Positions 17,677-64,000 of a stretch of DNA of 64,000 nt are shown piece by piece. The notes beneath the pieces were generated by a model. It had not been told where the DNA came from and ran no database searches. It saw nothing but the letters and a program-made list of their open reading frames with translations. Within the stretch, counting starts at the first letter, position 1. Each line of letters begins with the position of its first letter. The stretch comes from Psammoneis japonica (Eukaryota), in the NCBI GenBank assembly GCA_008632985.1, contig QPGO01000142.1, positions 62,001 to 126,000 on the forward strand, written 5' to 3'. The translations under genes and the position numbers were made by a program.

Positions 17677-18099
17677 GTTGTTGCAGATGATGGATGACGC
17701 GTGACAAACTAGAGTGGGGTGTGTTATTCTGTCGCATACTCTAGAGTAGACTGTTGCAAGGGATTGGCCCTGCTCTCGTCGCGGTGATTTTCGTGAAGTT
17801 TTTTTCTTTTTTTTGTGTGGTTGCGAGCGAGTGAATGAACGAATGAATTCCAACGGTCTGTCTGTACCGTAAGAGTCAGTGAGGGCGGGCGGGCGGGCGG
17901 GATCGTGTCAGGTGATGGTCTGTCAGGCGTCGTGTCGTGGCATGTGCTGGGATGGCTCTCTCTCAGTTCTCTGTGAAACTCGGCTTCGGTCATAATTCAA
18001 ATCTTGCACCGCAATTGTGATGACATGTTGGAACATCCTAAGAGACCCAGAAGTGTGCCCATTGAAGTGAGGATGCCTCAGATCTTGATGCAGTGCATT

Positions 18100-22900: not shown

Positions 22901-22989
22901 GCCAATCTTCACTGAAACACTGTGATCCCTCTGTTTCTCAGTTGCAGTGCTGCCAATGCATGAAACAGTGAACCTTGTCTTTGACTTTT

Positions 22990-25100: not shown

Positions 25101-25279
25101 GTGGGAGAAAGTGAGTGCAACCCTTGACCCTTGACACAACACAGCAGCACAGGAGTTTGTTGTGACAAGTTGTGATCACTGATGATTGATCAATCAGCAA
25201 AAGCAAGTGACTGCCTGCATGAAGTGTGGAGTGTGGGGGGAGCACCACAAGCCATGCTTGTTTCTTGTGCTGTGCCATG

Positions 25280-27937: not shown

Positions 27938-29288
27938 TGCAGCAATGACTCAGTGCATCACAGGAGTGACCTCCACACCAAGAGTTTCAATGTTTCGCAG
28001 CAGGTGCTTCCAGCGGCAGTGCCCCAGGTCTTTTCTGTTGACACTTTTTGTCTCAGAAATTTGGCACATGTCCAAACCATTGCAGTTGTGCAGTTTGCTG
28101 CCACATTGGCAGTCATCAGTGTCATCATCTTTCTAACTGGTGATGGACAAATTTTTGAACATGATTCTCAAATCATTCACTCAACACGGCATCCGACATC
28201 ACGGTGCTGATGTCAAGTGGGCTCAATCTTGGAGAGCTCTCACCTTGCACTAACATGTGCAAGGTGTGCCACTTTTGACCAGTTTGATTTTTTCATTGTT
28301 CAGCAGTGCTTGTGGTGCATCACTGCCATTGTCAAGCAGCAAAAGCTCTGAAAAACACTCGCAAGATTCTTTGCTGCACGAGCACCGTTTTCACAATGTT
28401 TTGCTTTCTTCTGCCCTTTCACCCAAAGAGTCACAGAGAACAGATAAAATGACATTCTGTCACATTGAGCTCTTCTCTGCAGAATGGCTGACAGTCATGG
28501 TCAGTTGGTGAAAGGGTGTTCTTGCACTTGCCCTGAGCAAAGAAGTTGTTGTGACCCATGCAGGTTTTTTTTGAGCACTTGGGCATGACAACTCATTGAT
28601 TGCAGACATTGTGAGGCTGTTCCACATGCAACTCATGCAGGTGCAACAGTGAGACATGCAGAGCTTGAGTCCCTGCATGACTGTGGTCACATTTGGTGCT
28701 GTGCAGATTTCACGCAGAGACCTCTCGCACAATGTGCTCAGTGGCCAGCCACCATGCCGTGACTCCATTGCATGTAAAGCTCCTGTGGCCTGTTGCAGGT
28801 TTCACACCAGGAGTTGCATTTTCCAACACATGCTTCTGCGTGATCAGCTGCAAACTGTGGACAGCCCACAGGCACAGGAAAGCAATTCAGAGCTCATGTC
28901 TGCTGCAGTGATCACAGCATTGGAAGCATCGCTCAGTCAAAACAGCAGCGACATGATTGCAGGGAAGCAATGAATGTCATGAGTGAGAACAGCTCATCCA
29001 AAAGTCTTTCTGATGAGACCTTCAGGACACCTGGTTGCATCTGCTAGTGGTGAAGGGTGTCCGTGATTTTGTAAATCCGGACCACAGCTGCTAGCTGGGT
29101 TACGAGTCACCTTAAGAGACGACGGACGGACGGAAGCGCCACAATTTTCTACATGTGCATCAACGTACTGTACAGTACGTTCGCGCATGAGTTTTGTTTT
29201 TACTTTGATAGGAGCACTTACTAACATGCTCCCGCGCCGCCCATCATCAGGCACAAACGCCGAGCAACGATCAAGTTTCACTAATCGA

Positions 29289-38900: not shown

Positions 38901-39485
38901 AGGTGTTGTGATTGGTGTTGGTGCTGAAGATGGCTCTGGCGTTGGAAGCGGAGTTGGTTGTGGTGTCGGACTCGGCGAAGGCGGAAGTGTAGGTTCAGGC
39001 GTTGGACTTGGTGTGGGAGCAGGTGTTGTGATTGGTGTTGGTGCTGAAGATGGCTCTGGCGTTGGAAGCGGAGTTGTCTCTGGCGTCGGACTAGGTGAAG
39101 GCGGAGGTGTAGGAGCTGGTGTCGGACCTGGTGAAGTAGGAACCGTTGTTGGGCCTGGTGTTGGGAGAGGAGTAGGCCCAGGTGAGGGTGGCGGAGTCGG
39201 TGTCGGGGTAGGCCCGGGCGTTGGTGGTGGAGACGGGGATGCGGTCGGTTCTGCCGTTGACGGTGCAGTGGGATTCGGCGTAGGCGGCGGTGAAGGTGGA
39301 GGAGTGATACTCATTTCCTCAGAGTCTTGAAGCAGACGAGCCCAGAAGTCTTTCTCATCATCTGAAAGGGTTGATATGGCTCGTTCAGCTTCCCGGAACA
39401 GGCCGCCACCAAAAAAGGCAACGTCTTGCGAAAAGGCAACATTAGCCGACGCGAGAACTAGAGAGACAATGCTCGAAACCTTCAT
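35938..39485 (-). CDS. Secreted protein with long Pro/Thr/Ser stalk and three Cys-rich ~250-aa modules; exons 39485-37647, 37553-36783, 36702-35938
   Basis: Signal [19 protein letters not shown]; two phase-0 GT-AG introns restore one frame; motif V(T/S)FDASG...L(Q/K)DKFG in each module. Confidence 0.88.
38470..39305 (-). repeat. Coding (TP/SP)-rich tandem repeats, including a near-perfect 120-bp duplication
   Basis: Lines starting 38881 and 39001 are nearly identical; PTPxPT units. Confidence 0.9.
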
Positions 39486-39889
39486 TTCTAACGCAGCTCC
39501 AAGCAGAGCCTGATGACCTGTACCTCTTTTACAACAACAATATGTAAGAGATGCTGTCTTGTATCTCTTTTTAGATGAGGAAACGCAACGCGGCTGGAAA
39601 CCACGATCTTTTTGATTGAGAGTTTGTGAGCAGTCGGTGTGAACAGCAGCAGTTCAGATTTTTTCTCTCTCGGAGTAGGCTTCGCTAATAAGTCGTGATG
39701 CGCTACCAAATTTAGACGGAATGAATGAAGTAATTTACTTTTTGCACGTATAGAAAACATATAGAGTTGAATAAAAAGAATATTTATTGCACTCGCTTTC
39801 TGCTACCCCTTTTGATAGTAATATTGTATGATAGATAATTGTCATTGGATATAGATAAAAATATTGATGTTGTCTATCACAGAAGAGAG

Positions 39890-40470
39890 CATGGCACATG
39901 GAACTCGATGCATGCTGTGTCGGCACAAAGGAAGGACCAACCTGAAGTGACGCACACACACGTGGGGCTTTCTAGACCCTGAGATTGTCATTTCCAATGC
40001 AGCTGTCTAGCCTCCATCTTATTTTGTACTGTCAACAAAATTGTGTGGTTGTGTGTTCTTCACAGCTGTTCTTTGCAAATTCAAGCTTCGCAACAACAAA
40101 AAAAGAGCCGCACGATGACATGCAGCGGCCCCAAAGCTGTGTGCGCAGCGCTGGGTGTTGCTCAAAGCCTTCACCACAGCCGCAAAAGCCATTTCCTCTC
40201 ATGGCATGCCCAAAGAATTTTTGTTTTAAAGGATTGAGTTTGACAGTGCCAGGCACCTGTGGAATTTTTGTGCCCAAAGGTTGTCTGTTTTCCACAGCAC
40301 AAAAAGCGGCAAAAGGAGAAATCATGTGTTGTCATTTTGGTGGAGCCCTCCTTGGAGCCAGCATTCATTGTTCTGTCAATGCTGCTCTTCAAAATGTGTG
40401 GCACCAGAGCAGCCATCTTTCTATTTTGAGTCTTGTTGGTGCTGTCCAGCTGAAGAGGTGCAACGAGGAG
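39890..40470. other. Small degenerate TpA/CpG-poor island
   Basis: TG/CA excess and few TA, flanked by AT-rich intergenic DNA. Confidence 0.55.
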
Positions 40471-40823
40471 CCGTCGTCGTCGTACGCTGAGAAATTGCGA
40501 AAAAGTGGAGAGAAAAGGAAATGTCCGAATTCGATCAAATATCTGACAAATATTTTCAGAAATTAGTAAAATATAATGTATTCAAACATGCATAAAGCAG
40601 TTATCGCCATTCCGTCGTTCGTAAATCATACGAGCATGAATAATGTTATAATGAATTCGGAAAAATTGACAAAATAACCCGGATCCAAACACACGACGCA
40701 CAACGCACAACAACGCTAACAAGCTAACAAAGCAACAACTGAACACGTCGGTGTCAAGACAAGTAGAACAACAATTCTCTTTCAGTTTACAGTTTTTCTT
40801 TTTGTTTATGGCATTTTGAAAAT

Positions 40824-45866: not shown

Positions 45867-46409
45867 TTACGATTTGCTTTCTTGTAGCATGCCCTGGCTT
45901 GCTAAATAGGCAGCTCCCGAATCCGCCCACACCTTGTACACTGTAATTTTGGCTTGTTGTCAAACTCGAGTCGATAGGTAAAGACTTCGTCCCATGTATT
46001 GCCTGTGGACTTCCACTCAAAGGTTGCCTTGCCCTCGACACAAACGGTGGAATGCTCTTCATCGCAAATGTACCAGAAAACTCCATGTTTTTGTAATTTA
46101 AGAGATTCGCAATAGTGATAAAGTAATCCCGTGCCTGTGAATGAAAACAAGAGATAGTCTTTATTGGGTAAGCATTTGATCAACAAGGAAGCAACACAAA
46201 ACCACAAGAAAATAAGACACGTACTCCGTCCATCCCAACATATTTCTTGTTGAGAAAGGGTGCAAGTTGCGTGAGCCCATGCTCGAAACATAGGACGTTT
46301 TCCGTCGTCGAAAAGTTGTCTAGGACCTTGTCGAGGGATTGTTTGTTGCAAAGGCATCACAGAGCGACCTTGCGGTGCGGAGCATTGCCTCCCGGCGTCG
46401 GTCCGACAT
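45867..46409 (-). CDS. Small SnoaL/NTF2-like protein with one intron and apparent single-base frameshifts
   Basis: Reconstructed pieces: MSDRRREAMLRTARSLCDAFA / LDNFSTTENVLCFEHGLTQLAPFLNKKYVG / VEGKATFEWKSTGNTWDEVFTYRLEFD / VYKVWADSGAAYLASQG. Confidence 0.7.
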
Positions 46410-46897
46410 GGTCAATGTTGAAGCGAAATCCAAATTTTTTCAAGTTTGGAATTTTTGGTCGAGTGATGTTTTTCAGTTCGACAATTTCGATATTGCCCAA
46501 AATGTAGGTATTAATTCCATCGTTGTTGTATATAAATTTTTGTATTCTTGATTGACAACGACCACTATCTTTAGGTGTGAAATATCATCAATTAAATTCT
46601 GATGACGTTCGTGTCAGCCTTATTTAACGCAAGGCACACGTCAGCGCCTAATTGAAGGGGTGATGCGACGTTGAAGCGATCTCCATCACTTATTTAACAT
46701 TCATTTCTATTTATCATATTATACGTGTGTTTCTGACGGTTGTTGAAAGTGGATGGATCTCGAGCTCGCCTGGCGGCATACGGACTGCCAACGAACACGA
46801 CTGGTCTACATACGTGGAGCAATGTACTGATTCTACGTAGAACGTCCGTGGCCCACTTTTGAAAAGCTGCGCGCTCGCACGAGTCTGAGCGCAGAGC

Positions 46898-49064
46898 ATG
46901 AGAGAGGAACTCCAACCGCATCGCTTCGTGGCCATGGCTCGAGACTGTAATAGCAACAACAACATCACCGACAGCGCCATGTCGACATCTTCTGATACTA
47001 CATCGCATCCCCCAATACAACAAAAGAAGGGTGGTAAGCCCAACAATAAGAATTATCATCGTGGTAAGAACAACGGTAGCAATCGTAGGAGAGGCGGCGG
47101 AACACATCAGCAGCAGCACTCTCCTCCGAACCCTCATAGTCATTACAACAACAGCCAGAGCAGGAGAAGACACAACCATCACGCTCAGGTCCATCCGCAT
47201 AATCCTTCTACTACTACTTCTATCACCGCTTCTGTACATGCCCCGCAACAGTCACAAGAACTACGACAAACTCTCGTCTCGTTGGAGTTGCATGATTCCC
47301 CCGAAGGCCTTTCTCGTAGGCAAGCAGCTCTCCAGGCTCTTCAAGACATTTTGGGACAATGGTCGGATGGACTCGCATCGTATGCCGCTTCTTCTAACAA
47401 GTGGTCACGCCCACGAGTATCACTGATTGCGTTTGGGTCGTTTCGATTGGGTGTGCACCGTCCCGACGCCGACATGGATCTCCTGGCTCTGTCCCCGCCG
47501 CACTGTTCACGAGAGGACTTTTTTTCAAGTTTGCCCCGCTTACTGTCGCTCGACACGCGAGTCACCGACTTGCATCCCATTCCCGGAGCGTACACGCCCG
47601 TTATTAAGTTTTCCATGCTGGGTGTCGCGATTGACTTGCTCTTTGCGAGACTTGCTCACACCAAGTCTAGCAGCATTTTGATTCCTGCTCCGGCGGTGGA
47701 ACAACGGTATCAGCTGCGTATTCAAGACTCGGATTGATTGGAATGGATGAAGCAGGGATCCGGTCCTTGAATGGAGTGCGAGTGCACAGATGTTGCTGGA
47801 GATTGTGCCAATCTGGATCATTTCAGAACCGTTCTGAGGGCCATCAAGGAGTGGGCGCTGGTGCATGGACTGTACTCGAACGTATTGGGCTTTTTGGGTG
47901 GAATCAACTGGGCCATTATGGTGGCGTTTATTTGCAAGGCCAACCCAGACGCGTTGCCATCGACGCTTTTGAGAATATTTTTCCATACCTTTGCGCACTG
48001 GAACTGGCCGCATCCAGTCACGCTGGCGGAGATTGCTCATGTACCGCCAGAGGGAGGTGAGTGTGGTCTGCAGAAGCTACTATAAGTGTATCAGTGCTTG
48101 GTTTGGTATCTAACACTCACACTTGCTTCGTCTCCTTTTCTGTTCCTTAGTAACTCCACAACCGGTCTGGAACCCAGACAACTATGCTAGTCGAGATAGC
48201 TCTCACGTTATGCCCATCATTACGCCCGCGTATCCAAGCATGAACTCCTCCTACAATGTGGGTTATCCGCAGCTGAGGAGGATATCCATGGAACTTACCG
48301 AGGCTAACCGTATCGTGGCCAACATTGAAGAGGGAAAGGCGACTTGGGACGACTTGTTTCGCGGGAGCAACTTTTTCCGTCAACACGTTCAGTTCTTGCA
48401 GGTACGGAGTGCTGTTGAGTAGCTTTCTCCAGTCGTATCCTTGCCCGTATGGAAGGTTTTCTCACGCTTGATCCCGTTTCATTATTTCTAGATTAATATC
48501 TCTGCCAAGAACGGACAGGATTTTTTGGAATGGTTTCGATTGTGTGAGTCTAGAATGAGGCTTTTGTTTGCCGGTCTTGAGACTTTTTCGTTTACTTTGA
48601 ACGGAGAACGGACGTTTGGAGTTCAGGCGTATCCATTTGCAAAATTCTTTGACCAGAAATACAACCACAATGGCAAATATATGGGAGTGGGAAAGAGTGC
48701 CGACAAGTGCAAACACGAGTCGTGTTTGTTTGTGGCACTGCGGTTCGCACATGGACTCGAGAGTGCAAACCTGGGAAACTCGTGTTCGGAGTTTTTGCAC
48801 CGCCTCAATAGTTGGGAAGGGCGTCGTGAGGGAATGCTAATCACCATTGAGCACGTGCAGCAAAAGGATTTGCCATCATTTGTACACGATGAGCACCATC
48901 CACAGGACATGTCGTCGTCAGACGACAGCATGGATGTGTCTTCTGCTACTACTACTACTAACGGCATGCCGCCGCCGAGTATGCCATCCGAGAATCCGTT
49001 ACAGGGAAAATTTGTGGGACCGTCGATACAGGTTCCATCACCTGCTAAACGTGCAAGGACCTGA
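46898..49064 (+). CDS. PAP1: Canonical poly(A) polymerase; introns 48057-48150 and 48402-48491; frameshifts near 47735-47795
   Basis: FGSFRLGVHRPDADMD, AYTPVIKF, IRSLNGVRV, WALVHGLYSNVLGFLGGINWA, MPIITPAYPSMNSSYNV. Confidence 0.92.
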
Positions 49065-49529
49065 GGGTAGGAGGAAAAGTGAGGATACAATCTCGATGTT
49101 GTGCTTTTCGATGAGCTGGGTCCGGCCTTCCGTGCAGGGCTCCCGGTTACTCGCTGAGTACTTTTATTCATTGCATCTCGTGTCTGCTGTCTGAAGAAAG
49201 AATACAGATACAATTGCTATTCAGACACTGCTGCGAGAAGCTGCGTTCTCCGTATTATACAAGATTGGTCGGAACATTTTGGACCAAGACACGCATAGCT
49301 TCTTGGGGGCCTTAGTGTTTCTACTGCTGCCCGTTTTGTGTTATATTTTCCTGTGGTTCTTCATGTCATTCCATTTCTCTACTTTTTATAACCTTAGAAG
49401 AAATATAGTATTTGTGACGCTGTATTTACTTCTAGACCGACGATTGCAACCACTCGATCGGCGATTCTGCAGCCAAACGCCGCAAAAAGAAAAAGCAAAT
49501 AACATGTTTGGTTGGTACAGCATGTATTT

Positions 49530-52226
49530 CTAATTTAACGATCGCAACGTTGGTTGCCCGTTAGTATTGAAGGATCGCAGGGAAATTTCATCACCGGTGG
49601 AGGCATCATCATCATCTTGTTCAATCTCTGCTTCCTCCACTGCATTCTCCGCGACAATCTTTCTTGACAGACCGTCCCAATCCGACAATATCAACAGATA
49701 CGTTAGTGCTGTGCCCGCAACCGAATATCCAATCACCACCGCGGAAGTGATGCCTTGTAGGTTGATATTGAACGGGAAGGTAAACAGGGCCGCCAACGGC
49801 AACGTCACCCCCCAACTAGAAAGGGCAAACACAATGGTGGCAAGTCGGTATCGGCCTTGCGCACCAACTAGTGCCCAGCTCACACTGCCAGCAGTGAGTG
49901 CAACGTTTCCAAGGCCCACAAGAGGAATCACATCAACAATGATTCTTTGAAGGGTCGGGTCGGATGTGAACCAGATGGCCATGTTCTCTCCAAAAATGAA
50001 CATGATTGAAGTTAGTAAAGAGGCCATAGCAAACGAAATGAGAATGCATTTGTATCCAGAAGACTTGGCCCTGCTGGGACGCCCCCCGCCCAGATGATAC
50101 GCCGTGCGAATTTCACCTAAGAATAAAGAGGATAAGCGCGTGAGTCTTTATCCACCAAAGCAAACGTAAAATCTGAATTTGACAATTGTCAGTGGTCAAA
50201 TTGACACGTACCTGCATCAGCGAATCCAGTCGACGTTGCCTCGATAGCCTCCCAGAGTATCCCAACGATCCCCCATGCAGCAGTTTCAGCGGGACCAATG
50301 TGCGCCACAAAAAATGTTAAAACTTCCCACTAAGAGTTATCGAGATAAATAACAATGAAAGGTTACGATAGCAACGCACGCAAGGAAATACGTGGATTAA
50401 AACAACTTACTTCTCCATTGGCCAGCAACTCTCCGATACATAAGGGAATTGCGGTTTTTACCACTTTCTTGACAGCTGTAGTATTCTATGATTTTTCAAC
50501 GGTTCAACAACGACTTAGAAGCGTCCACAACGAAAAACAGCGTACTTCCTTGCCAAACACTTACCTTCAATGCACACGCACCGGCCATACCCTTGAGATA
50601 GTCTCTGACCCAGCCCTTCATCACAGGAAAACCGATGACAAAAACAGAGAAAATCAAACCAATCAGAAGATCAAAGAGTGCCACTTCCGTCAGTGTGGGG
50701 TTTTCTTTAAGTGTCAGAAGGAGAACCAAAGCCATACCACCTATGAATTCTTCAGTAACGTCCATCAAAAAGAGAAACTTTTCCATGTCAATGCAGTCCA
50801 ACAAGTTGCAGAACGCCTCCACAACTCCTTCTGCCAAACCGGTGAACACAGCGATATTGGCATAGTTTTGAGCCATTCTGGCAGTCTCTTGATCCAATCC
50901 CAACGCAAGTACCAAATGTCTGTGAACGCGAGCCAAATACAAATGCATGGTAACATTGAAGCTGCAAAAAGAACGGCGGTGATCTGAACATATTGACCAG
51001 CCAATACGTTGTTGCCGGCACCGATTGCGTGCGGGCAAAGAACAGAGACGGTCTCGACAATTCCCCAAAGAAGTTCCTCTGTAAGTGAAATAAAGATATC
51101 TGCAAGGGTATAGGCTGCTACAGCTCGAGTTCCAATATAGTGAGCAATCAGAGAAACAATCACCAGCTCCCAAACGCCACTAATGACTTCCGATAAGCAA
51201 AAGGAACTGCAAGCTGCATCAATCGCTTCGAATCTTTATCGTATTCTGCCAACTGCAGGAAGTCGTCAAACATTTGAGAAATCATGGAAGGCCTCCACCA
51301 AGCACGTTCCCCGCAACAGATATCACATTCTCTGCGGCAAAGTCTTCAACGACGGCTGGCTCATCTGGATCCTGCAATCCGGTTCCAACGCAGCAGCGTC
51401 CACCTCACTTTGCTCGTGCTGCCAAACCGACATTTTAGCCGTCCTCGAATGCTTCTTACGTCTGAGTGGACCTCCTGGAAGACTCTGGGTCGCCGGGATG
51501 ATGCTACACTGCCACTGACTTCACTAGCGGCGTATTCAGACAGCGGATGCGCCGCCGGGCTTGACACTTGTTCAAACTCATTGTTTCGCATCGAATTGAA
51601 TTGCTCAACTTGCAGTGCTCGGCGACGAGCCACCGCTCCACGCCTGCGACGGCCTCCACGATGAACGGGAGCAATGTAGCCACCCTCAAGCACGGACGAA
51701 GATGCGGTCCTTGTGGTCGATCTCGACATGTGTGAAAACGTGGAGGAAGAGCCGGCACGAAAGTAGGGATCGTTGTTTGTGAATCTCGCCAACGCACCTC
51801 GCGTTAAAGCATGCTCCTTGCAAGAACAATGAAGAATACATACAATGTGAGATTCAAGCGTGGAATCACAATTCAACATGTTTCGTCAACACATACGAGA
51901 GTTACATACCTCCTGTTCAAGTGTTGAGCCGGTTTTGCATCAACGCGGCTCTCCGTCTGCCCCCCGATTGGTACGTCCTGACCCTCTCCTAGTCCTCCTC
52001 TCGCTCCTCTTTTTATCCTCCATTTCTTCTTCCGTCTGGAAACTCTACCTTGTGGGTCCAAACCACCTTCTCCCCACGATACAAAACAGGGCAACATCAT
52101 GTTGGACACGAGACAAAAGATGGCCGTAAACAGCAGCAAGTAGTAGGATGGATCTACCGCAGTGCTCTCATACACCTCGATAGCATCATCATCATCATCG
52201 TAGTAGTAATCGTCTTGTGCTGCCAT
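49530..52226 (-). CDS. MATE family transporter, multi-exon, with apparent frameshifts
   Basis: LIAHYIGTRAVAAY, CPHAIGAGNNVLAGQYVQ, IWFTSDPTLQ, LVGAQGRYRLA, several minus-strand GT-AG introns; start uncertain. Confidence 0.82.
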
Positions 52227-52718
52227 GATTGGAACAATGCAACTCCTCAAAAGAAAGGGGAAATGTTACGGTTTTATTTCACTACGTTATTGTCGTCGAT
52301 AATGCCTCTGCGAAAAAATTGCGTGAAATCACGCAGAATGGAATATGAAAACTGAAATAATTCATTTATGTCGATACTAATTCGCCACTATCTCATATGT
52401 GTACTTTATTATGAGCTACAACGGATGAAGTCCTTTTGATAATTATTAAGATTGAATATATTCATTATCCGTTGAAATGCGTATGTTTCATATAGCATTC
52501 ATTGCATATAATATTGAAGAATAACATATAATCAGTTGAAAGATTTCGCGGTGCGGCGCCATGACGCCTGTTGCCGGTTTCCTGGGAAAGTCGCCCCAAC
52601 GTTGCCGACAAGCAGCCCAGTGTTAGCTTCTTGCTTGACTAAGGCTTCATTATTATTTGTATCACAACTGGTTCCCGAAATGACGCATACATCACTGACG
52701 ACTCCTCCCTGAGCTACA

Positions 52719-54365
52719 ATGCTGACTCATCGACTCATCGGATGTCGTCACGCGCCTCCGAGCGATCTGCGCCATTTTCCTTTCAACTCCCAAGTAGTCG
52801 CGTCGTTTGAAGTTCTTGGGTAAGGCGTAGTTCCAGGAGCAGCGGAACGATTCCACGTTACTTCACAAGGATCAAGATGCCAAGAAGAGTCTGCTTTCTT
52901 CGTATGCTGCTCGTTCTGGCAGCAACCGACGCTACTACTAGATGTTGTTCCGCGTTTCAGCACTGCCAGGACCACCGAAAATAGCAAGGCTGAGAGCACC
53001 CTTTCTTTTCGCAACCGCACCCAACGAACCAGGGGATCTAAAAAATGGCAAAGAAGGCAACTTTTTGATTGCGGCGAGAAACACTCTGAAGCATGTCATG
53101 CTTCCCACCGTCGTTGTCGCTAGCACTCTATTGTCACCGTGGGGACTGGAACTCACCTGAATTCCCCAGCTACGCATCAGGCAGTGGCAAACGAATATAC
53201 TGCTACAGCAGTCATTTCGGTACAACGATCCAACGCAGCCTGGGCCTTGACGAAAACCAACAGTTGGTGGACGAGTTGGAAGGAAGTCACTAGACAATTT
53301 GTCGATCGAGACTTTGCTGGAATGGGCGAAGAAGGCTGGCGTCAAAAGCGTCTCGATGCCATTAAAAAGGTTTCCCAATACAACACACCCGATGATGCAA
53401 AGCAAGTTCACGACATTATCCGTAGCATGCTGGAGAATCTCAAGGACCCTTACCCGTTATCTCGATCCCGATCAATTCGAGTCTCTAACAGCTTATGCCA
53501 AGGGAACAACCACAACGGGGATTGGCGTTCAACTCATTGTCGAACCAATAACGGGTGAGATTGCCGTGGTAAACACTACCCGGATGGACCTGCTAAAAAG
53601 CTGGAGTCTCCCAGGCGATATCCTTCTTTCGGTGGACGGCGACCCTGTGAGTGGTACCACCGCCGAAGTGGCAGCTGCCAAGTGCCGCGGAACGTGGGCA
53701 CGGACCTTGTCGTGGAAGTACGACACGAGGGTCAAACGTCAAACTCGAGGCTTGTCATTACAAGAGCTCCGATTCAGAATAATCCTGTACAAGCTCCACA
53801 TTCACAGCGAGCTCGGGCAAAAAGGTTGGGTTGCTCAAGCTCACGTCCTTTAGTCAAGAGACGGTCAAACAAGTGAGTGAGGCTCTCGACAAGAAATTGG
53901 AAAAGTATCGGCACTCGTCATTGATTTGCGCGGAAATGCGGGTGGTTACATGCCGGCTGGAGTGGACCTTGCCAAGCTCTTCTTGCCGCCCCAATCTCGC
54001 ATCATATCGGAACTAGACAAGAACGGCCGTACCACCATTTTTATCAATGATGGTGTTGGCAGCGAGAGCGAGACACCGCTGTATCTTGTTGTTGATAAGA
54101 GAACTGCCAGTGCGTCCGAGATTTTTGCTGCTGCGATTCAAGACAATCATCGAGGATCATTGTGGGATCCACAAAAACATTTGGCAAGGGTCGGATACAG
54201 AACGTTCTACCTCTCTCGGACGACGGAGGCGTCGCTGTGACCAAGGCCAAGTACATCACACCAAGTGGCAAAGATATTCATGGAGTGGGAATCACACCGG
54301 ACAAGGAACCAATGTCTTGTGAAGACAATGCTTCGGCGTCATTGTGTGTGGCTAACTTTCTCTGA
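52719..54365 (+). CDS. ctpA: C-terminal processing peptidase (S41A, PDZ-containing), broken by multiple frameshifts; start uncertain
   Basis: MLENLKDPY, TGIGVQL, PGDILLSVDG, DLRGNAGG, TASASEIFAAAIQDN, KTFGKGRIQ, KYITPSGKDIHGVGITPD in successive frames. Confidence 0.85.
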
Positions 54366-54718
54366 GAAAAATCCTACTTGATGGAACCCGGATGTAGCGT
54401 GACACATCCCGAACTCCGAACTCGAAATCACAATGAAGACATCAAACATCAACGCCGCTTGATGTCAGCCTCAACACAGAAAGAACCGCAACGAGGCTTA
54501 GTTACGCTAGAGCTATATTATCTACCCGTCAAGAAAAAAGCTTATGTTTCGTCTGTCTCGAGGCGCCTCCTGTTATTGCTTCTAAACACATCCTTCTTTC
54601 TTCGCAAAGCGAAGCCTCTCGGTATAAATTGTTCACTTCCAATCTCTAGACCAGCGTTTCTGGGACAAGCCACTCTCTTTGCAACATCCTTCTCTCAACA
54701 AACCATTCGTTTGGTAAC

Positions 54719-55788
54719 ATGGACGACGCTGTGAAATTGCTGACAGACGTTTATGGCCCGGTAGACGATCCAGATTTCCCGTTGCCCATGCCTGCTGACG
54801 AAGCCGGTCTTTGCGGCGACGAAACCAACGACGGTATCTTTGGACTGACGCTTTCGGTGTTCTGGCGTTTGTATCCATTGCAGACCGCTTCGAAAAACAA
54901 GGCAACAAGTCCGAAGCCGATAAATACCGACATGCCGCCGACACACTGGTTCGAACGGTTCACAAATGTCTTGGATCTCCGCGGTCTAACAAGCCACAAG
55001 ACGCCATGACGAAATCTGAAGCTTCTCCCACGGGCCATGTGGGACTTCGTATCGGCAAGGTTTCCAGCAAAAAGGTGACCGATTACGGCATGAGCTACGA
55101 CGGGATGTACTTCCACTACGTAGACAAGTGGCTGCTGGCTCTCGCTCGATCCGGGCATGTCAAGGATGGTATTACGATCGCCAAGACGTGCTTTCCTGCC
55201 TTTTTTGACAATGGAGACGGGACAGGAAGGAACGGAGGAATTCGTTGGAAACTTTCTGTGGACGCGAGCCCCCCGCCTTCGCTTCGAAGTGCCACAGCAA
55301 GTGATGACACGCTGGTGGCGCTCATTGTGTTTTCAATCCTTGAGGCACACCGAACAGATGATATGCCGAGTCTCAAGGACGAAATTGGTCAGCTAAAGGT
55401 TGCGTTGAGGGGTTACAGACCGCGTGTCACGGACGATCCCCTCGGATGGGGACTCGAGGCAATGTACGATCAGTGGATCAGGGGAAGTCCTCGAAAGCAT
55501 GCTCTGGCGTCTATCCAGTCAAGTGCTTTGCACCCTTCCCACCTGTCTTTGCCGTTTCGCCTATACGGTGCCATGATTGGTGCTCGGGTGGCAGGAGAAT
55601 CTGTTGCACCTCCAGAGAAGGTTGACCGGTTGGTAGAACTCTCTCTGCGGCATGAATCTCAAGCTGCCGCCAATGGATTTGAAGAGCACTCCTCCATCAA
55701 CCGAGTCATGTTGGCTATGTGCCTGTTGTGTCCAGGGGCTTTAAAGAAAGACAACGGTGACCCGATTGTTTCGATTGAAGAAAATTAA
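54719..55788 (+). CDS. Uncharacterised RYLWTDAFG-motif protein, frameshift near 54810
   Basis: QRRYLWTDAFGV, GLRIGK, DGMYFHYVDKWLLALAR, WKLSVD. Confidence 0.7.
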
Positions 55789-56152
55789 CCGCGAAAATCT
55801 GTTCTTGTAGAGGTGTGCTGCAATGTGAGAAAAGGAGACCGTTGAGAAAAAGACACATGTCGTACAATTCTCATGGATCAAGCACTCGTACCAATTTATA
55901 TCAAGCTGCTTCTAAACTTAATACTGGGTGAAAGCTCCACGGACATTCAACGGGCATGGTGAAACACTTACAGTGCTCGGCGGTAAATTTTAATTGTTAC
56001 AATTAGACGGCTTGATAGTTTTTCAGCAAAGTTTCAATGCCGGTAACGCAGTAGAGTGAAATGATCACTTATCCCTGGGAGCGAACATTTGAACTTTTGG
56101 AAAGGAACCTTCTCATAGGTAAGCGTCAACAGTTCGGTAAGCAGTGATGCAC

Positions 56153-56301
56153 AAAATGGAGAGTGGAACAGGTGGCATTCATCCGCTCTCCCGCTGAGCT
56201 ACACATCAGCCTTGGGCTGTGGTTGGAGTCGAACCAACGACCTGTTTCCTAGACTGGAAAGATTGAATTGGATTGCTGTTGGGGCCACCTGCCTCTCGCC
56301 A
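56153..56301 (-). ncRNA. Circularly permuted tRNA-like RNA, probable Pol III transcript
   Basis: T arm GTTGG-TTCGACT-CCAAC (56238-56222) precedes D arm TAGCTCAGCGGGAGAGC (56201-56185); acceptor-like stem closed by CAA; ends pair (CAGGTGGC/GCCACCTG); TTTT downstream; TATA-like tract upstream. Confidence 0.75.
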
Positions 56302-56743
56302 AGTTCGTTGAAATATATAAATTTCTTTTAGGCAGATAGAAGCAACGATACCTACAGTACGGTAGTCTTATCTTAGAGAGTACAGTACAGTAGAGTAGGA
56401 CCCCTCTCTATTTCGATAGCTCTCTAAAGCTACTGTAGTAGATTTAGGTACCGGGATCGATTGACGCACGAGCGACAGACTCAACCATTCATTCAGCGGC
56501 GCGGGCGGGCGGAGCCTGGTCAGGGGTGAGTGCTCCGGACATGTTGTATGCACAGAATCACAGCATGCGACGGACGGATAAGCTTACCGGTAAACAGTCT
56601 AACAGAGCACCACAACATTGGCAAGGTTGGAAAGTCTTTTGACGATTAGCTCGTTGTGTACATTGCGCTGGATTGTATCGTTTATTGTGAAATCTAAAGA
56701 AAGAGGGTGTAGAGAAACCAGTAAAAAAGAATCGCTGTAAAAA

Positions 56744-57256
56744 ATGAGTAGCGCTCGCCTCAAACTCATGAAGGAACTCACAAAGTTCCCGAGGCAAACG
56801 TCGGCGCAAGTCAAGGAGGCTGCCAAGAAGACGCGGTGGAATATTGTACGGGGTGACAAGGTTCAAGTTATCGGTAATCACCCCGAACGTGGTAAGCAGG
56901 GCATTGTCACAAAGGTGATTCGAGAAAAAGACCGGGTTCTGGTGGAGGGGGTGAATCTCGGCCCCAAGCGCATTAAAGGCGACGCTGATCGCGGCATCAA
57001 GGGCCGGACTATCCAAAAGGAACGAACCATTCACTATTCCAAGGTTAGCTTGGTGGATCCTGTGACAGGCTTCCCCACGCGTGTGATTCGAAAATACTTG
57101 GATGATGGATCAAAGGTGCGTGTTGCCAAGAAGAGCGGTGCCATCATACCCCGGCCCGCAATTTTGACGCAACGGAAGCGTCCTGTAAATCAGATTGTCA
57201 CGGAATCTGACACTTTGGATGAGGATGTGTGGGAAGTAACGTACAACCCAAACTAG
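56744..57256 (+). CDS. MRPL24: Mitochondrial ribosomal protein uL24m
   Basis: KOW motif WNIVRGDKVQVI..ERGKQG, VLVEGVNL, ERTIHYSKVSLVDP, KVRVAKKSGAIIP. Confidence 0.92.
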   Translation: MSSARLKLMKELTKFPRQTSAQVKEAAKKTRWNIVRGDKVQVIGNHPERGKQGIVTKVIREKDRVLVEGVNLGPKRIKGDADRGIKGRTIQKERTIHYSKVSLVDPVTGFPTRVIRKYLDDGSKVRVAKKSGAIIPRPAILTQRKRPVNQIVTESDTLDEDVWEVTYNPN

Positions 57257-57520
57257 TCTAATGAAACTCTAGTGGAGTCAACAAATCGCTCCGCATATGC
57301 AGATGCTTTTCTGACCAAAAGTCGCAGGCATTACTCTTACTCATAGATGTGCCCATAAGTTATTGATTATTTATCATCTAGCGAAGAGAGAATTGTTAGG
57401 GTCAGATGAAAGTTGTGAAATGCTCATCGCTCATCGGGCGGCCAGCTACAGCCCGTAGCCATGAGCATCGAATTGAAGATGAACTTTGGAACACATCCTG
57501 CATACTATAGATGAGTAGAT

Positions 57521-59061
57521 TCACCGGAGGCGAAACTTCAGTCCGAAATCGTCGGAAGGTATCTTGATCGGAATCTCAGTGTACGCAACTGCACCTTTCT
57601 TGTCAAACCATCACCACTGTATTCCCAACCGTCAAATCTCGACGCCATCTTGCCGACGAAAAGCGTTGCTACTAATTCTGCAAGGGGGATTCCAGGGCAT
57701 CCATGAGCGCCTATACCACCAGGAAACCATGCCGTCGGGCCCTTACCAAGGGCTGACCCACGAAAAGGACATTTGGAGGGAACGTTCTTGCTCTCCGGCA
57801 TCCATCGTTCAGGTTCAAAGCTTTCAGGGTTAGGATATAGAGTTGGATCTTTGTTGCCGATGCGTGGTTCCAAGGTGACAGCAGTGCCGGCAGGAATTCG
57901 AAAGCCGCATAACTCAAAGTCCTCATCACCGTATCGAAAACCGCCTCCAACTTGTGGAATAAGCCGAAGAGATTCACGGACAGTGCCGTGTGTGTAGGGC
58001 AAGTCCGAGATTTTTGTCGACCCCTTCTCGACAGCTGACGCAGTTTCAAACTCTTTTCGAATCGCATCGACCGATCCATTATCTTGTCGCAATAGAATCA
58101 GAGAGTTGGCCATGAGGGCTGCCGTCTCAGCGTACGCGCCCCAAATAAACAAAAGAGATGCCACGGCTCGCCGATCTATATTATTCGAAAACCCATAGAT
58201 GCTGTTGACCTTGTCGAAATAAAATTTGCCCGGTCCCTCCTTGCTCGCTAAACGTTCGTGGCGGTCAGTCATTTCTGTTCGCAACGTCTCCAACGCATGC
58301 TTGCCCCTTTTGTATGCCGGTAACAATTTTGATGCTGCAAGCAGACCATAGTTGTAATCCACAAAGTCTTGGACTTGTTCAGGAGACAGCTTTTCACCAG
58401 AAAATATCTGAGCAAAGAGTTGGAGGCAGACGGTAGAGAATTCTGGAGTAACAAAGACTGAGGTATCTGGATTTTCCCTTATACGCTGCTCCAAATCATC
58501 AATGTAATTGTCGAGTTCAGCATTTACAATACTCGCGTAGTGTTCCAACGCGCTCTTTCCCAGAATTTCGGCAAAGAGAGTACGAGCTTGTTTGTGAAGG
58601 ACGTCGGTCGAATCGAGATTCAATGCCCCCCATTCGGTGTGGAGTGTTGAAAAGGTATCAGGCAAGGCTGAGTGAACGACTCTGCTCGTCAATTCCTTGT
58701 CTCTGATGAATTCTCCAACGGCATCAGGCCCACCAACAACCACAGCTGGCTTCAAAAAGAGATTTGTCATAAAAACAGGACCGAGCTCTTTTGATCTAAC
58801 TTCAATGAATTCTTCAGGATTCTTCAAGTACGAAACAAAATCCTTTATTTTCCGAAATGGACCTCGGGGGCGATGTGGTGGTAGGGGAAGCGAGGACAGA
58901 TCAGTAGATGATAATGTCTTTGTGTCATGCGCTGCTAAGACAGTAGATTCTCTGCGAGGATCCTGCAACACCTGCAATCCCTGCAATGCCTGAGGCGAAA
59001 ACGCCTCAGCCGTCAAAAAAGTGACAACCACGCTAGTTCCTAGTGTGCGGAGCCTGACCAT
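57521..59061 (-). CDS. Cytochrome P450, probably plastid-targeted; apparent frameshift near 57596
   Basis: Signal followed by AEAFSP; I-helix GAYAETA, ESLR, FEPERW, heme motif FPGGIGAHGCPG; alternative frame gives IPIKIPSDDFGLKFRLR-stop at 57521. Confidence 0.92.
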
Positions 59062-59419
59062 TCTATCTTCTCCTGCTTTGTAATCGCCAAGCCGATTGCC
59101 TTCTGTCGTTCTCCACCTCTCTCTCTTTTCTTTCTCTTGTGTGAGATCACTCCCAGCTTGGGAGGTGCGAGATGAGCTAAACGAGGGTATGGAATACCGG
59201 TACGACCCACAACATGGTTTGTGTCCCGACTCAGCGCGCGGTGTCATCACGCATCGAATAATCTACGATCAACTCGACTCAGCTCGTCCTTCGCACGTAG
59301 ATACGGATGACTGACGGACGCTGTCGTTGCCTCTCCCGCCGCCGCCCTCGCCCCGCCCTTTCCAAAGAACAGGCTCTCACAGCGCAGAAGCCAGCGGGTG
59401 GGATGCGTCCTCCCATGCT

Positions 59420-61280
59420 CTTAACAGGATCATATGAAAATTTTCTAGAGCCAACCTGTCCCACAGTCTTCACACCTGTCACAACTGGCAGAGCCACATC
59501 AGATGCCTCAAGGTTCCAAAATGGTGTGTGGAACAGCGTTGAGCTCTGAAAGATGATGTTGCACTTGTCGCAACTCTCACACCAGACACACCCATGCTGC
59601 ACTGCACTCACAGCACTGAATCCTCACAATTGCGCCCTTCTAGCCCTTCACAGTGGTGGAATCAAACCACTGAGCGAGGCATCCAGAGCAGCTCAATGAA
59701 CAAAATTTGGGTGTGAGTTGGGCTCATCTCGCACCTGGCAAACAGCTCCAGATGTCAGAGTGTTTAGACCTGGGGCATCAACTCCCAAGCCAACTGCTCT
59801 GCAGTCACAGACTGGATGAAAAGCACCCAAGCTGGCACCTGAAGCAGCCCCACAATGCAAAATGTCAGACTGAAAAGAAGAAAGAACACAGTGCACAGAA
59901 TGCATTTCTCCCGACCTGGCAACCACCAGTCTGGAACATGCCCCACACATTGTGACAAAACAAGACAAAACTTCAAAGCTTCTTTCATTGAAAAAAAATC
60001 AGTGCAATGGACATCAGAGACTGCTTGAGGATGCTCATGACCTTGAAGCCCAACAGTTGCTTTGCACAAATCACAAGTGGTCCTGCCACAAAATGTCCAG
60101 CCAAAGGAAAAGGAGCAGAAGGCCAAACTCTAGAGAGCAATTTGTTGCCAGAATTTCACTCACCTTCTGAGGCCTGACAGGAAAAGGCTCTGGCTCTTGC
60201 AATTATCAGCATGAAGCTTGCAAACAAAAGGCCAGAGTCCGCTGATGGTCAAAAGGTGCAAAAATGCCATTGCAGCATCAGAGAGTGCATCACTGGAACA
60301 ATCTTGTGTTCAGCACTTCAATCATCCCCACAGAGTGCACCACCCATGTCAACTGCAGAATTGCAAATTTTTGGATGGTGCTGTTTTCATGTGGTTCATT
60401 GCTGGAGTCACACAATGGGTTGGCAAATCCTGACACTGTGTGCAAACTCAAGCTTTTGCATGGCTGCAGCGCATGCACAAAAACACTTGCACCCAGCCAT
60501 TGCACCACCATGGCATCATGAGCCACACTCTCCACTTGCCATCATGGGTGGGAGGAAGTGACAACAGCAGCAAGTTTGCTGGACAGCCTCTCTCCCAGAC
60601 TGTGCCAGCTTGCTGGGCACAGTCTTCTCGCGTGCAAACAGGGGCTCTGGCTCCGCCCTTCTCCTCGCAGCTGCCCATCTGTCCTCTGCTTGTTGGATCC
60701 ATGCAACAGCCAACCAGGGCACATCCAGCCAATGTGACATCTTCTTGCTCTTGCTTGATTGACTTGGAGCCTCAGCTGTGTGAGTCTCTTGGGGCTCCAT
60801 GTCGTGAGAGGCGCAACAGCAATTGAGAAGTTGAGCCTTTTGTGCCATGTGACACCCTTTTTGTTTCATGATGTCATCACACAGCCTCTCAAGATACCAT
60901 GATCATGCAGGGCAACAACACTTGGGAGATCTGCACCTGTTTGGCAACTTTAGCAATTTGTGCAGGTTGCCGGTCTTTGCGGTTGGCGAAAAAAGCCAGG
61001 GCCTTCAGCCCGCACCTCGTGTCTCTTTGGGCAGCACCTTGCGAAGACAGGAGAAAATCCATCACTCAGACCGCTTTGAGGGCTTGTTCCAGATCAGCCA
61101 GGACATCCCACAGGTGCTCCAGACATGCGGAGATGCGCACCTTGTCAGCACTGTCACATGACTTGGATGAGGCCGTTCCTTGTGGTTCCACCGCCGCCGT
61201 CATCCGCATGGTCTGTCAGTCAGTCATCCGCAGGCATTCTGACACGTGCATTTTGCGAGAGAGAGAGAAGCAACAACATG
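59420..61280. other. Degenerate CpG/TpA-depleted domain
   Basis: TA rare throughout; CG reappears at 60960-61260 while TA stays absent. Confidence 0.85.
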
Positions 61281-61401
61281 CGCCGCATAGCGCATAGACC
61301 ATGGACATCATGGCATAGACTAGAGCACATCACGCCGAGCAAAAGCAGCGGCGAGTTTTTGGTTTGGTGATTGAAACAATCATCGAGTAATCATCGAAAT
61401 C

Positions 61402-62635
61402 ATGAGCTGGCTGACCGATTCCCCCGACTTAGAAACCCTGTCAAGGATGGTCTTGACACTCCTTACACTTGCCGTAACATGGTGGAGTCTGCCACTAGTG
61501 AAACGATTCTACCGTGTCAGATTTGACGCTTATCGGTTTTCGAGACTGCAGCTACGGACCCAACTTCCCGAAAACCTTCTACACCGTCATGGTGTTTTTG
61601 ATTCCTTTAGAGCTGCTTTGGAAGACCCGGATTTCAATACGGTGATGCTGTACGGTACTCGCGGTGCTGGAAAAACAACGGCGATCGAAAGTGTGTTACA
61701 AAAGCAAAGGGGAGTTGTGGCTTGGAGTCTCACGGCCAACACCTACGAATCTGCAACTGCCGAAATGAAGGAGTACTGGAAAGAATTGTTTGATCCTCTG
61801 GATAGAACTTTATGTAGAGGATGTATGCCTTCTTATATTGCACAAATACGGTCGTCCGCTAATTGTAGTGGTTTCCGTGGAAGCACAGGCAAAACCAACC
61901 GCACTGAGAAGTTTGTTGCATTTCTGCAAGGCAATGTCGTATAACACAAAATTCGTTCGATTCGTTGTGGATGTTGCGGCTTCTCGTGTCGCTCTGGACA
62001 TGAGAACAGATTTTGTGAAACTGCGACTGCGCAAGGTTTTAGTAGGTCCTTTGACGCTACCGGAAGCTCATTCCTTCTTGATGAAGCAGCTACCAGCGGG
62101 ATGGACTGATGTCCAGAAACAAACAGTATCGCAGGAGGTCACATCAAAACTTGGATGTGTTGTTCTTATTCTAACCGATATCTGCAAGGAATTTACTGAA
62201 GGAATGAGAACGGACGACTCGCTGAACATTGTGCGGAATACCCACAAAGCCAAAAAGACCCAAGTTTTTAATCGACTCAAAGAATTTGATTCTCTTGTGG
62301 CCACGAAGCTAGGGGAATTGCCAAACAAACCACCTGCTCCATCGTTCAAGACGGAAGGCGGTCTGGATGAAGAGGGCTTGGGAAAGCTCACAGGATATTT
62401 GACCTTCTCTGGGTTTATAAGGCTGATTGAAGAAATTGGATCACCCTACATCTTTGAAATCGACCCGTTCACTGAACAAGTGACATTAGGTGGTCCAGTT
62501 GTGAAGGAAGCTTTCATGGAGCATTATACGTTGCATAAAAAACTGTGCATTTTTGTTAGAGACGCTAAGTCTTACGTGACGAGAGCGCCCGGCCTAGTCA
62601 TGTCAGCCCCCAAATGTCTGCTGCTTCATCAATGA
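61402..62635 (+). CDS. P-loop NTPase with N-terminal TM segment, frameshift near 61800
   Basis: VMLYGTRGAGKTT Walker A; downstream PLIVVVSVE, RFVVDVA, VGPLTLPEAHSFL; normal CG/TA content. Confidence 0.65.
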
Positions 62636-62739
62636 ATTTTTGGTGCTGTATCTTGACCTCCTCGACGGTCCACGCCTCATTTTCGGCCACTTCACGTGTC
62701 GTAGGCCCTCCCCATCATTTTGTAGGCCCAAAAGATGCC

Positions 62740-64000
62740 CATCGTGAGGAAGGCATCACTTGGGCTGGGATGCTCCCCAAGGCCTGCAGCAGCCAGCACT
62801 TCTTTGGCTTGTGCTGTGGCTTTCTTCAGGTTCATTGTGGTGCCCCATGCTTGCATGGGGACCCCTCTGTGCAGAGGTCTACATGCATTTTTGCATGTGG
62901 CGCTGAAACATGAAGCCTGCATGCACAAAAGTGGCGCAGTTTCTGCTGCAAAAATCCAAAAAAAGCCTGGTTTGTGAGAGAAACACTGGAAGAAAATGCG
63001 TGCAGACTGCTGCAGTGGGTTCCCATGTGCACATGGGGTGCCATGACAAAGGTGGTCCAGCTGCTCTTCTGTGGGTGAGAGCCAAAAATCAAGAACTCCA
63101 GTGGCCGCTGACAAAACTGCATCTTGAAGTTGGCTTGGGACAAGTGCCCAAAAACATGCCAACAACCACAACAGTGGTGGTGGTGGAAGTGGGAGTCAGA
63201 GAGAGAGAGAGAGAGGGCAAATGAGCAATGCACAAGATGGGAAGTCATCTCAAGCAACATTCAAAAAACAACAACAGCGCAACAACGGTGCCCAAAAGCA
63301 CCTGCTTGGCATCAATGCGTGCATGCCCAACTTTTGTTGGGAGACTGTGCAAAGTTAAACCACCCATGTTGAGTGCTTTTGAGCAAAAGTGGCAACTTGG
63401 TCTGCTGATTGTCCACTCACAGGGGTCTGAACCACCAACCTGCTGCACAGCATGACTTGGTGCTCCTTGAGTGCACTCAAGTGGGTGCCCGATCATGGTC
63501 ACAATCTGTCGAGGTTCGCTGCACCCAAATTCTCAGGCCAGCACATCATCTCATCCAGCTTTTTTATCCAATGTTTTGGCTCCAGCTTTCTTGCAACCAT
63601 TGTCACATTTAGCAGTGAACATGTGGCATCCGTCTTTGGCCCAACAGATGGCAGTCGATGCAATGCCACATCTGCGATGAGCCCATCTTGTTTACATTTT
63701 CCAAATGCCAAGCCTGCGCAGTCAATGCTGCACTTCTCTTGAGCATTTCTGTTTTGCACAGTCAGGCATCAGATGTGCAACAAATGAAGAAAGAAGCAAC
63801 AAGCATGCTTGGTGCTGCACTTGTTGAGAACATCTGTGTTTGTCAGTCTGCTGTTGTCTTGTTGCAATGGAATCAGAGAGTCAGCCATGAGGGCTGCCGT
63901 CTCAGTGTGCACACCCCAAACAAACAAAAGAGATGCCACGGCTTGCCAATCTACATTGTTCAAAAACCCATTGATGCTGTTGACCTTGTTGAAACAAAAC
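62740..64000. other. Degenerate CpG/TpA-depleted domain running off the window
   Basis: TG/CA excess; (GA)n at ~63198-63215. Confidence 0.85.
63851..64000 (-). pseudogene. Hypermutated fragment of the P450 gene (copy of 58076-58225)
   Basis: Ungapped 150-nt alignment with 21 differences; GAYAETAALM becomes GVHTETAALM. Confidence 0.95.

Follow-up and report, generated by a model that had tools for sequence, protein, structure and literature searches.

Joint depletion of CpG and TpA in discrete tracts of a Psammoneis japonica contig, and a decayed cytochrome P450 copy that carries the same changes

We analyzed a 64-kb stretch of the diatom Psammoneis japonica (contig QPGO01000142.1 of assembly GCA_008632985.1, positions 62,001 to 126,000 of the forward strand; 64,000 nucleotides, hereafter the window, with position 1 as its first letter), in which the dinucleotides CpG (CG) and TpA (TA) are distributed very unevenly. 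The number of CG plus TA per 100 bp is bimodal across the window, being about 9 in most of it and 0 to 2 in six tracts that together cover ~19 kb, or ~30% of the sequence. Close to the right end lies an intact cytochrome P450 gene, and the last tract contains a decayed copy of part of this gene. The features that the analysis rests on are listed below, the tracts being assigned to no strand and delimited by their CG/TA counts and borders.

1 to 1285, no strand: tract truncated at the left end of the window; of the ten borders, its right one is the weakest
15709 to 16687, no strand: tract between a DEAH helicase gene and an L7/L30 ribosomal protein gene; its borders switch within ~10 bp
17936 to 29058, no strand: the largest tract, ~11 kb, with no recognizable protein domain
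31285 to 34092, no strand: tract
59446 to 61125, no strand: tract separating the P450 gene from the gene that follows, its last ~300 bp only partly converted
62743 to 64000, no strand: tract with the decayed P450 copy; its left border lies ~108 bp past the stop codon of gene 61402-62635
57538 to 59250, minus strand: intact cytochrome P450 gene, a 570-amino-acid open reading frame (ORF) with a Pfam p450 domain (E = 9.1e-37)
58076 to 58225, minus strand: the part of the intact gene that matches the decayed copy, in the ancestral state; its conserved residues agree with 24 homologues and with a metagenome relative (L007)
63851 to 64000, minus strand: decayed, 3'-truncated P450 copy with an ungapped match to 58076-58225; it continues past the window end

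Within the tracts, the deficit of CG and TA is accompanied by an excess of TG and CA. Expressed as observed over expected frequencies (O/E), the three classes of DNA in the window compare as follows.

Tracts: CG O/E 0.17, TA O/E 0.05, TG O/E 1.87, CA O/E 1.84, G+C 0.481
Long ORFs: CG O/E 0.95, TA O/E 0.51, TG O/E 1.19, CA O/E 1.18, G+C 0.495
Non-ORF, non-tract DNA (15.8 kb): CG O/E 0.93, TA O/E 0.64, TG O/E 1.20, CA O/E 1.17, G+C 0.467

In absolute terms, positions 18301-28100 hold 49 CG and 22 TA next to 1139 TG and 1149 CA, and positions 31301-34000 hold 21 CG and 3 TA next to 318 TG and 324 CA. Fewer TA (5-7%) than CG (14-17%) survive in the tracts, while the reverse dinucleotide AT stands at an O/E of 0.85. 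A genome-wide neutral mutation bias, which would act on all unselected DNA, was considered and rejected, because the 15.8 kb of DNA outside both ORFs and tracts have normal CG and TA (O/E 0.93 and 0.64). When 95% of the CG and TA in the normal DNA of the window were converted in a simulation, half to TG and half to CA, the predicted frequencies of CA and TG (0.1182 and 0.1181) came close to those found in the tracts (0.1181 and 0.1157), and the distance to tract composition fell from 0.088 to 0.020. After the dinucleotides were accounted for, no other tri- or tetranucleotide of normal abundance was strongly depleted in the tracts.

The two losses have common borders, sharp to <100 bp and, at 15709, 16687, and 62743, to ~10 bp. 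Averaged over the ten borders, CG rises from 1.2 to 7.0 and TA from 0.3 to 3.1 per 100 bp within the same 100-bp bin, and the coordinates place the borders 56-600 bp outside the adjacent ORFs. In the partly converted zone at 60901-61374, TA loss (O/E 0.20) is ahead of CG loss (O/E 0.69).

The P450 pair offers a before-and-after view of these changes. Realignment reproduced what an earlier reading of the same DNA, made by a model from the letters alone (the sequence-only reading), had reported: positions 63851-64000 align without a gap to 58076-58225 over 150 nt and differ at 21 positions, by 20 transitions and one A>T. Its site counts likewise proved correct on recount. From the intact stretch to the decayed copy, CG drops from 10 to 2, with 8 of 10 sites converted (C>T four times and G>A four times), and TA drops from 9 to 1, with 8 of 9 sites changed, seven by transition to TG/CA (A>G four times and T>C three times) and one to TT. 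Nearly all of the lost dinucleotides are now TG or CA, which increase from 9 to 18 and from 9 to 16, respectively, and the 20 transitions divide equally into 10 that are C>T or G>A and 10 that are A>G or T>C. Sixteen of the 21 differences are bases within CG or TA; four more make up two CA<->TG swaps (at 58077-78 and 58107-08), and the last is a T>C at the final base (58225/64000), swaps and edge change being found just as previously described. The concentration in CG and TA is far above chance: changes hit 16 of the 38 bases in CG or TA and 5 of the 112 remaining ones (Fisher p = 1.4e-7) or, counted by pyrimidine-purine (YpR) steps, 20 of the 74 bases inside such steps and 1 of the 76 outside them. 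The same reading had noted that AA was untouched, and indeed AA goes from 17 to 19, no A that follows an A has changed, and the AA/TT context holds at most one of the 21 changes, a T>C in TT. In purine/pyrimidine coding, 149 of the 150 positions are identical, and the match begins exactly at 58076/63851.

The direction of change can be read from relatives of the gene. The intact P450 ORF has 62 homologues at E <= 1e-10 (best identity 54%), and of the 40 at E <= 1e-68, those with a named source come from Chaetoceros tenuissimus, Nitzschia inconspicua, and three bacterial metagenome-assembled genomes, two of them cyanobacterial and one Hylemonella; on this basis the window was treated as nuclear DNA of diatom type. 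Its dinucleotides are normal, both over the whole gene (CG O/E 0.95, TA O/E 0.52) and over the homologous part at 58076-58986 (CG O/E 0.90, TA O/E 0.54). The decayed copy, 5.8 kb away from this parent, comprises codons 343-391 plus all that lies upstream; since it lacks the C-terminal third that bears the haem-binding site, it can never have been functional. When 24 P450 homologues are aligned with the gene, W370, A372, and Y373 do not vary and R360 hardly does, and the decayed copy is the only sequence to carry R360W (CGG>TGG), A372V (GCG>GTG), and Y373H (TAC>CAC). A closer relative is encoded at 775-1596 of a 1.6-kb metagenome contig (L007), with 67% identity over residues 124-398 of the window P450, against 54% for the best protein-database match. 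The intact gene agrees with L007 at codons 3, 15, 17, 18, 29, 30, 31, 39, 43, and 45, and six of these compare with the decayed copy as follows.

Codon 17: CGA in L007, TGG in the decayed copy
Codon 18: CGA in L007, CAA in the decayed copy
Codon 29: GCG in L007, GTG in the decayed copy
Codon 30: TAT in L007, CAC in the decayed copy
Codon 43: CTA in L007, CCA in the decayed copy
Codon 45: CGA in L007, CAA in the decayed copy

Codon 26 (I/V) is ambiguous for polarity in this comparison. Because the intact state matches both the 24 homologues and L007, CG and TA are ancestral and TG and CA are derived in the decayed copy. The outgroup comparison that the sequence-only reading had suggested thus supports the direction it had assigned, on the evidence of R360, A372, Y373, and six further codons, and the same pattern spans the ~19 kb of tracts.

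The changes are balanced between the strands. TG and CA are about equally frequent in the tracts, and they follow one another in random order (runs-test z = 0.19, 0.03, -0.10, 1.35, and 0.37 in five tracts), whereas the same test gives z = -4.1 and -4.5 in normal, mostly coding DNA. Strand balance and random order therefore argue against both a processive single-strand deaminase and the editing of one RNA strand. Flanking bases do matter, however. CG survival is 0.25, 0.126, and 0.095 with zero, one, and two A/T flanks (chi-square p = 1.2e-5), so that G+C flanks favor survival. For TA, the survivors avoid RTAY, where 1 was seen and 14.9 would be expected, and favor YTAR, with 26 seen for an expectation of 8.4 (p = 1e-11). 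By tetranucleotide, TTAA is overrepresented 4.6-fold and CTAA/TTAG 3-fold, while ATAT and ATAC/GTAT have no survivors in the tracts, against 366 such sites in normal DNA. This bias could reflect a substrate preference, or else TA that were newly made from TG or CA.

Public reads were used to check the assembled letters; they come from a single study, and the run used here (X1) is possibly the source of the window assembly and not an independent individual. One k-mer contig from this run (4278 nt, depth 63) spans 60401-63158 and 63225-64000, each piece differing from the window by a single letter; the 66-nt simple repeat between them (63159-63224) was skipped in the comparison. In total, 3534 nt of tract and gene are matched with 2 differing letters, and the contig joins the tract with the decayed copy to the normal gene at 61402-62635. 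At the sites in question the contig carries the decayed bases, not TA or CG, which bears out the sequence-only reading and excludes an assembly slip. Past the window end, the contig jumps back by 5775 onto 58226-58556 and then onto 58661-58986, with 39 other letters in 331 and 37 in 326 relative to the intact gene. The decayed copy extends at least 760 nt beyond the window, where it carries deletions (skips of 104, 42, and 232 nt), and the joints of a depth-58 contig (58992>59035 and 59124>59357) suggest that it runs, again with deletions, into the P450 promoter. The summed X1 depths of ~118-131 over 59342-60675 and 62677-63343 are not copy numbers, and the joints and indels alone were used. 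As a control, the window was compared with run contigs at 45958-57599, where the 40 differences shown (of 359) comprise 22 transitions, and 9 of the 40 fall in CG or TA. This share of 22.5% compares with 19.7% of bases in that normal DNA, and ordinary variation there is without a CG/TA signature.

The tracts contain little that is recognizable as coding or as a mobile element. Their translated ORFs hold 0.1% tyrosine and are rich in cysteine, histidine, glutamine, and tryptophan, and none of the 149 stop-to-stop ORFs of at least 70 amino acids reaches the curated Pfam cut-off for any domain, the sole weak row being DUF4644 (E = 0.005; 17 bits against a cut-off of 27). None of the four complete tracts has terminal direct or inverted repeats. 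Self-comparison of the window in purine/pyrimidine coding returned one short inverted-repeat pair in the 11-kb tract and otherwise low-complexity matches. The arms of this pair (25273-25361 and 27859-27944) are ~85-89 nt long and 2.6 kb apart, with 89% nucleotide identity (94% in purine/pyrimidine coding) and >50 identical bases in a run, and they may mark the termini of a small DNA transposon. Loose ends of X1 contigs fall at 62870 (six), 62887 (three), and 62921 (two), all inside the tract at 62743-64000, which probably contains a dispersed multi-copy element.

Taken as a whole, the reading that we find somewhat more probable than its rivals combined is that a local, DNA-level, and strand-symmetric mutation process strips CpG and TpA from discrete gene-free domains. 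That the process is local and acts on DNA follows from the simulation, which reproduces the tracts, while other non-coding DNA and the parent gene stay normal. Under this reading, CpG and TpA, both self-complementary pyrimidine-purine dinucleotides, would each be turned into TpG or CpA through one transition. As for the P450 duplicate, truncated and non-functional from the outset, it would have arisen beside such a domain, been absorbed by it, and been converted in place, while the transcribed parent gene and ordinary intergenic DNA would have remained outside. Loss of CpG is most simply accounted for by deamination of 5-methylcytosine (5mC) in methylated silent DNA, which needs nothing new if the tracts are, as we suppose, methylated; one diatom study describes cytosine methylation of transposable elements via DNMT5 (PMC9998398).

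The loss of TpA is the unexpected part, since it has the same borders as the loss of CpG and does not fall behind it in efficiency. An A:T pair becomes G:C, a change beyond the reach of cytosine chemistry, and therefore a second activity tied to the same domains is proposed. This activity could take two forms: (i) the adenine at TpA might be deaminated to inosine, the sequence-only reading having already named an adenine deaminase, or (ii) T or A at TpA might carry a symmetric modification that is mutagenic. Targeting by domain, through chromatin or methylation state, is more likely than targeting by pairwise homology. More tentatively, and with the odds somewhat against it, we suggest that this diatom lineage has a second mutagenic pathway at TpA that is confined to silent domains of CpG methylation, either as a natural adenine deaminase of duplex DNA or as a maintained symmetric TpA mark that decays as T>C/A>G. 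Together with 5mC decay, such a pathway would erase CG and TA from silenced DNA at constant base composition, and the scarcity of RTAY and enrichment of YTAR among surviving TA would be the footprint of its sequence preference.

Several observations weigh against this interpretation. The before-and-after evidence is a single 150-nt pair within the window, as self-BLAST of the 64 kb, in nucleotide and in purine/pyrimidine coding, returned no other intact/decayed pair. Each of the two CA<->TG swaps requires two steps or a change in the parent lineage too; they can be explained by two steps in the copy or by one step per lineage from a CG or TA ancestor, and L007 favors N (AAY) as ancestral at codon 39, a swap site, without settling the history of the swap. 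Beyond the window, the stretches with 39 differences in 331 and 37 in 326 contain only 31 and 20 CG plus TA, respectively. Because the differences outnumber these sites, the decayed copy must also carry other types of change, and the rate excess at CG and TA is probably tens-fold rather than the ~70-fold that the 150 nt imply. Finally, borders as sharp as ~10 bp would fit targeting defined by an element or by homology, too.

This last point leads to the explanation closest in form to repeat-induced point mutation (RIP), namely a homology-triggered burst in which pairing recognizes duplicates and a mutator hits CpG and TpA in the repeat only. In Neurospora and other ascomycetes, RIP (through RID/DIM-2) acts before meiosis, prefers CpA, creates TpA, lowers G+C, and hits both copies, and the edges of RIP-mutated segments are abrupt. 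The resemblance is real: the changes here are nearly all transitions, specific to dinucleotides and contained in sharply bounded segments (~10 bp at 15709, 16687, and 62743), reading frames of duplicated DNA are destroyed, the converted P450 fragment is a duplicate, and the X1 contig ends at 62870-62921 hint at dispersed repeats. Many diatoms also carry DNMT4, which groups with fungal RID (PMC9998398). The main argument against such a burst is the normal CG and TA of the parent copy (O/E 0.95 and 0.52), where RIP would mutate both copies, although lineages with a mutated parent gene could, in principle, have been eliminated by selection. The dearth of repeats points the same way, with the one ~89-nt inverted pair in the self-comparison, terminal repeats at none of the four complete tracts, and Pfam domains in none of the 149 tract ORFs. 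Furthermore, RIP consists of C:G>T:A changes only (as treated in the RIPCAL description, PMC2621366), whereas A:T>G:C changes are equally frequent here (10 and 10 transitions). RIP creates TpA, whereas TA falls from 9 to 1 in the pair and to an O/E of 0.05 in the tracts, and it lowers G+C to produce AT-rich isochores, whereas tract G+C is 0.481. Judged from sequence alone, the process is not RIP as defined, none of the four features compared being present. We therefore consider a homology-triggered burst unlikely, and the terms "RIP-like" and "repeat-targeted" in the sequence-only reading are not supported. Its remark that TpA removal is the opposite of RIP and lies beyond cytosine methylation does stand, as TpA is destroyed and A:T>G:C is as common as C:G>T:A.

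That reading had also offered error-prone patch repair of the Pol eta type. In the form considered here, a deaminated 5mC is handed to mismatch repair and a Pol eta-type polymerase mutates nearby A:T pairs. The attraction is that A:T changes would be linked to domains of CpG methylation, much as A:T mutations are coupled to cytosine deamination in "phase 2" of somatic hypermutation. Yet the Pol eta hotspot WA includes AA, and this polymerase is strand-biased and makes many transversions, whereas the pair shows changes at TA only and balanced between strands, with 8 of 9 TA changed, 7 of these 8 by transition, AA going from 17 to 19, and at most one of 21 changes in AA/TT. In addition, TA loss precedes CG loss in the border zone at 60901-61374 (0.20 against 0.69). 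Error-prone repair near deaminated 5mC has been proposed for human variation (PMC3409255); here we regard it as very improbable. Equally little credit is due to selection against CG and TA (like the suppression of CpG and UpA in RNA viruses and cytoplasmic mRNAs) or to foreign DNA of such composition. A joint CpG/UpA deficit with TG/CA excess is described at the RNA level in PMC3829696. In the window, however, a fragment of a host gene gained this composition in place while its reading frame lost sense, the depletion is extreme (TA O/E 0.05), tract composition equals that of converted host DNA in the simulation, and a run contig links a tract to normal genes.

ADAR accepts a 5' A too, and ADAR or APOBEC footprints in retrocopies are strand-asymmetric clusters of one transition type. 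Editing at the RNA level (ADAR-like A>I or APOBEC-like C>U) followed by reverse transcription and reinsertion would hence be expected to look different from what is seen: four transition types are balanced in the pair, the tracts have no strand runs of TG or CA (z near 0), AA is untouched in the pair, and 5.8 kb separate the copy from the parent gene. Retroelements are known to bear footprints of editing (PMC4866542), but we hold this origin to be extremely improbable. We rate a sequencing or assembly artifact, for example through misread modified bases, just as low. The read support does come from one study that may be the assembly source, but the k-mer assembly, at a depth of ~63, reproduces 3534 nt with 2 other letters, and the conversion is specific to dinucleotides and domains, with the adjacent genes intact.

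The favored process, local loss of CpG and TpA from silent domains, also differs from the remaining known systems. With methylation-driven CpG decay it shares strand-symmetric CG>TG/CA change (4 C>T and 4 G>A), a tract CG O/E of 0.17, limitation to silent domains, and slower decay in G+C-rich flanks (survival 0.25 against 0.095), but such decay leaves TpA alone, whereas here TpA is lost even more completely than CG. The CpG-directed hypermutation of repeats in basidiomycetes, which acts in a TCG/CGA context, is similar as a repeat hypermutation centered on CpG and different in that no A:T>G:C component is known for it. In dinoflagellates, 5-hydroxymethyluracil prefers TpA; our full-text literature search found no paper on it. 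A maintained mark on a self-complementary A/T dinucleotide has a counterpart in AMT1 N6-adenine methylation, whose logic could be invoked for TpA; the preprint 10.1101/2024.10.28.620566 describes AMT1 methylation as symmetric at ApT, placed at active gene starts, and not mutagenic, and gives Phaeodactylum tricornutum as having only 5mC and no N6-methyladenine (6mA). In our tracts, in contrast, it is TpA that is lost, and AT stays at an O/E of 0.85. The known A:T mutators and marks therefore fit the TpA loss poorly, Pol eta acting at WA, ADAR acting on AA as well, and 6mA lying at ApT.

While loss of CG is familiar, we know of no mechanism for an equally thorough loss of TA (TpA>TpG/CpA). To our knowledge, the point mutations that are directed at silent DNA are all C-to-T changes, produced by RIP or by 5mC decay, and the adenine base editors that we know of are engineered ones. 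A search of ~8.1 million PubMed Central papers and 0.36 million preprints, with subscription-only papers and genome-paper supplements outside its range, returned no paper that describes a combined loss of CG and TA in the DNA of diatoms or other algae. If the interpretation is correct, a domain-restricted A:T>G:C process at TpA, equally efficient as the one at CpG, would be a new mutational signature, and it could point to a natural activity that modifies or deaminates adenine in DNA or to an unrecognized TpA-based DNA mark. It would also explain how ~30% of the region could lose CG and TA, and with them the tyrosine codons and two of the three stop codons, at unchanged G+C, and the density of CG plus TA would become a simple genome-wide marker with which to map silent domains in diatom genomes. 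A scan of 50 metagenome P450 loci (390,751 nt), most of them bacterial or 1.6-7.8 kb long, gave none with a 500-nt window of <=8 CG plus TA, a sample with too little power for inference on other diatoms.

Some further features of the window lie outside the six tracts. A second run (X2) is probably RNA, in spite of its "DNA?" label, because its joints are spliced GT..AG introns. The joints skip 79-95 nt at 48054-48149, 48399-48490, 50114-50565, and 51815-51909, have GT..AG or CT..AC ends, and mark short spliceosomal introns of the genes for poly(A) polymerase and MatE. This run has no cover in the bins 59342-60675 and 62677-64000, and such missing cover is no evidence on tract expression. Three adjacent ORFs on the minus strand at 35941-39653, each with a DUF7467 domain (E = 7e-12, 2e-12, and 5e-10), form, by their predicted domains, a tandem gene family. 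In-frame tandem repeats occur within two long ORFs, at 38460-39310 in ORF 37557-39653 (123-nt period, ~72% identity) and at 4230-4650 in ORF 2978-5305 (102-nt period, up to 91% identity). Lastly, a 200-nt patch at 40201-40400, within ORF 39976-40563, has 1 CG plus TA per 100 nt, which may be a dip by chance or a small island of conversion.

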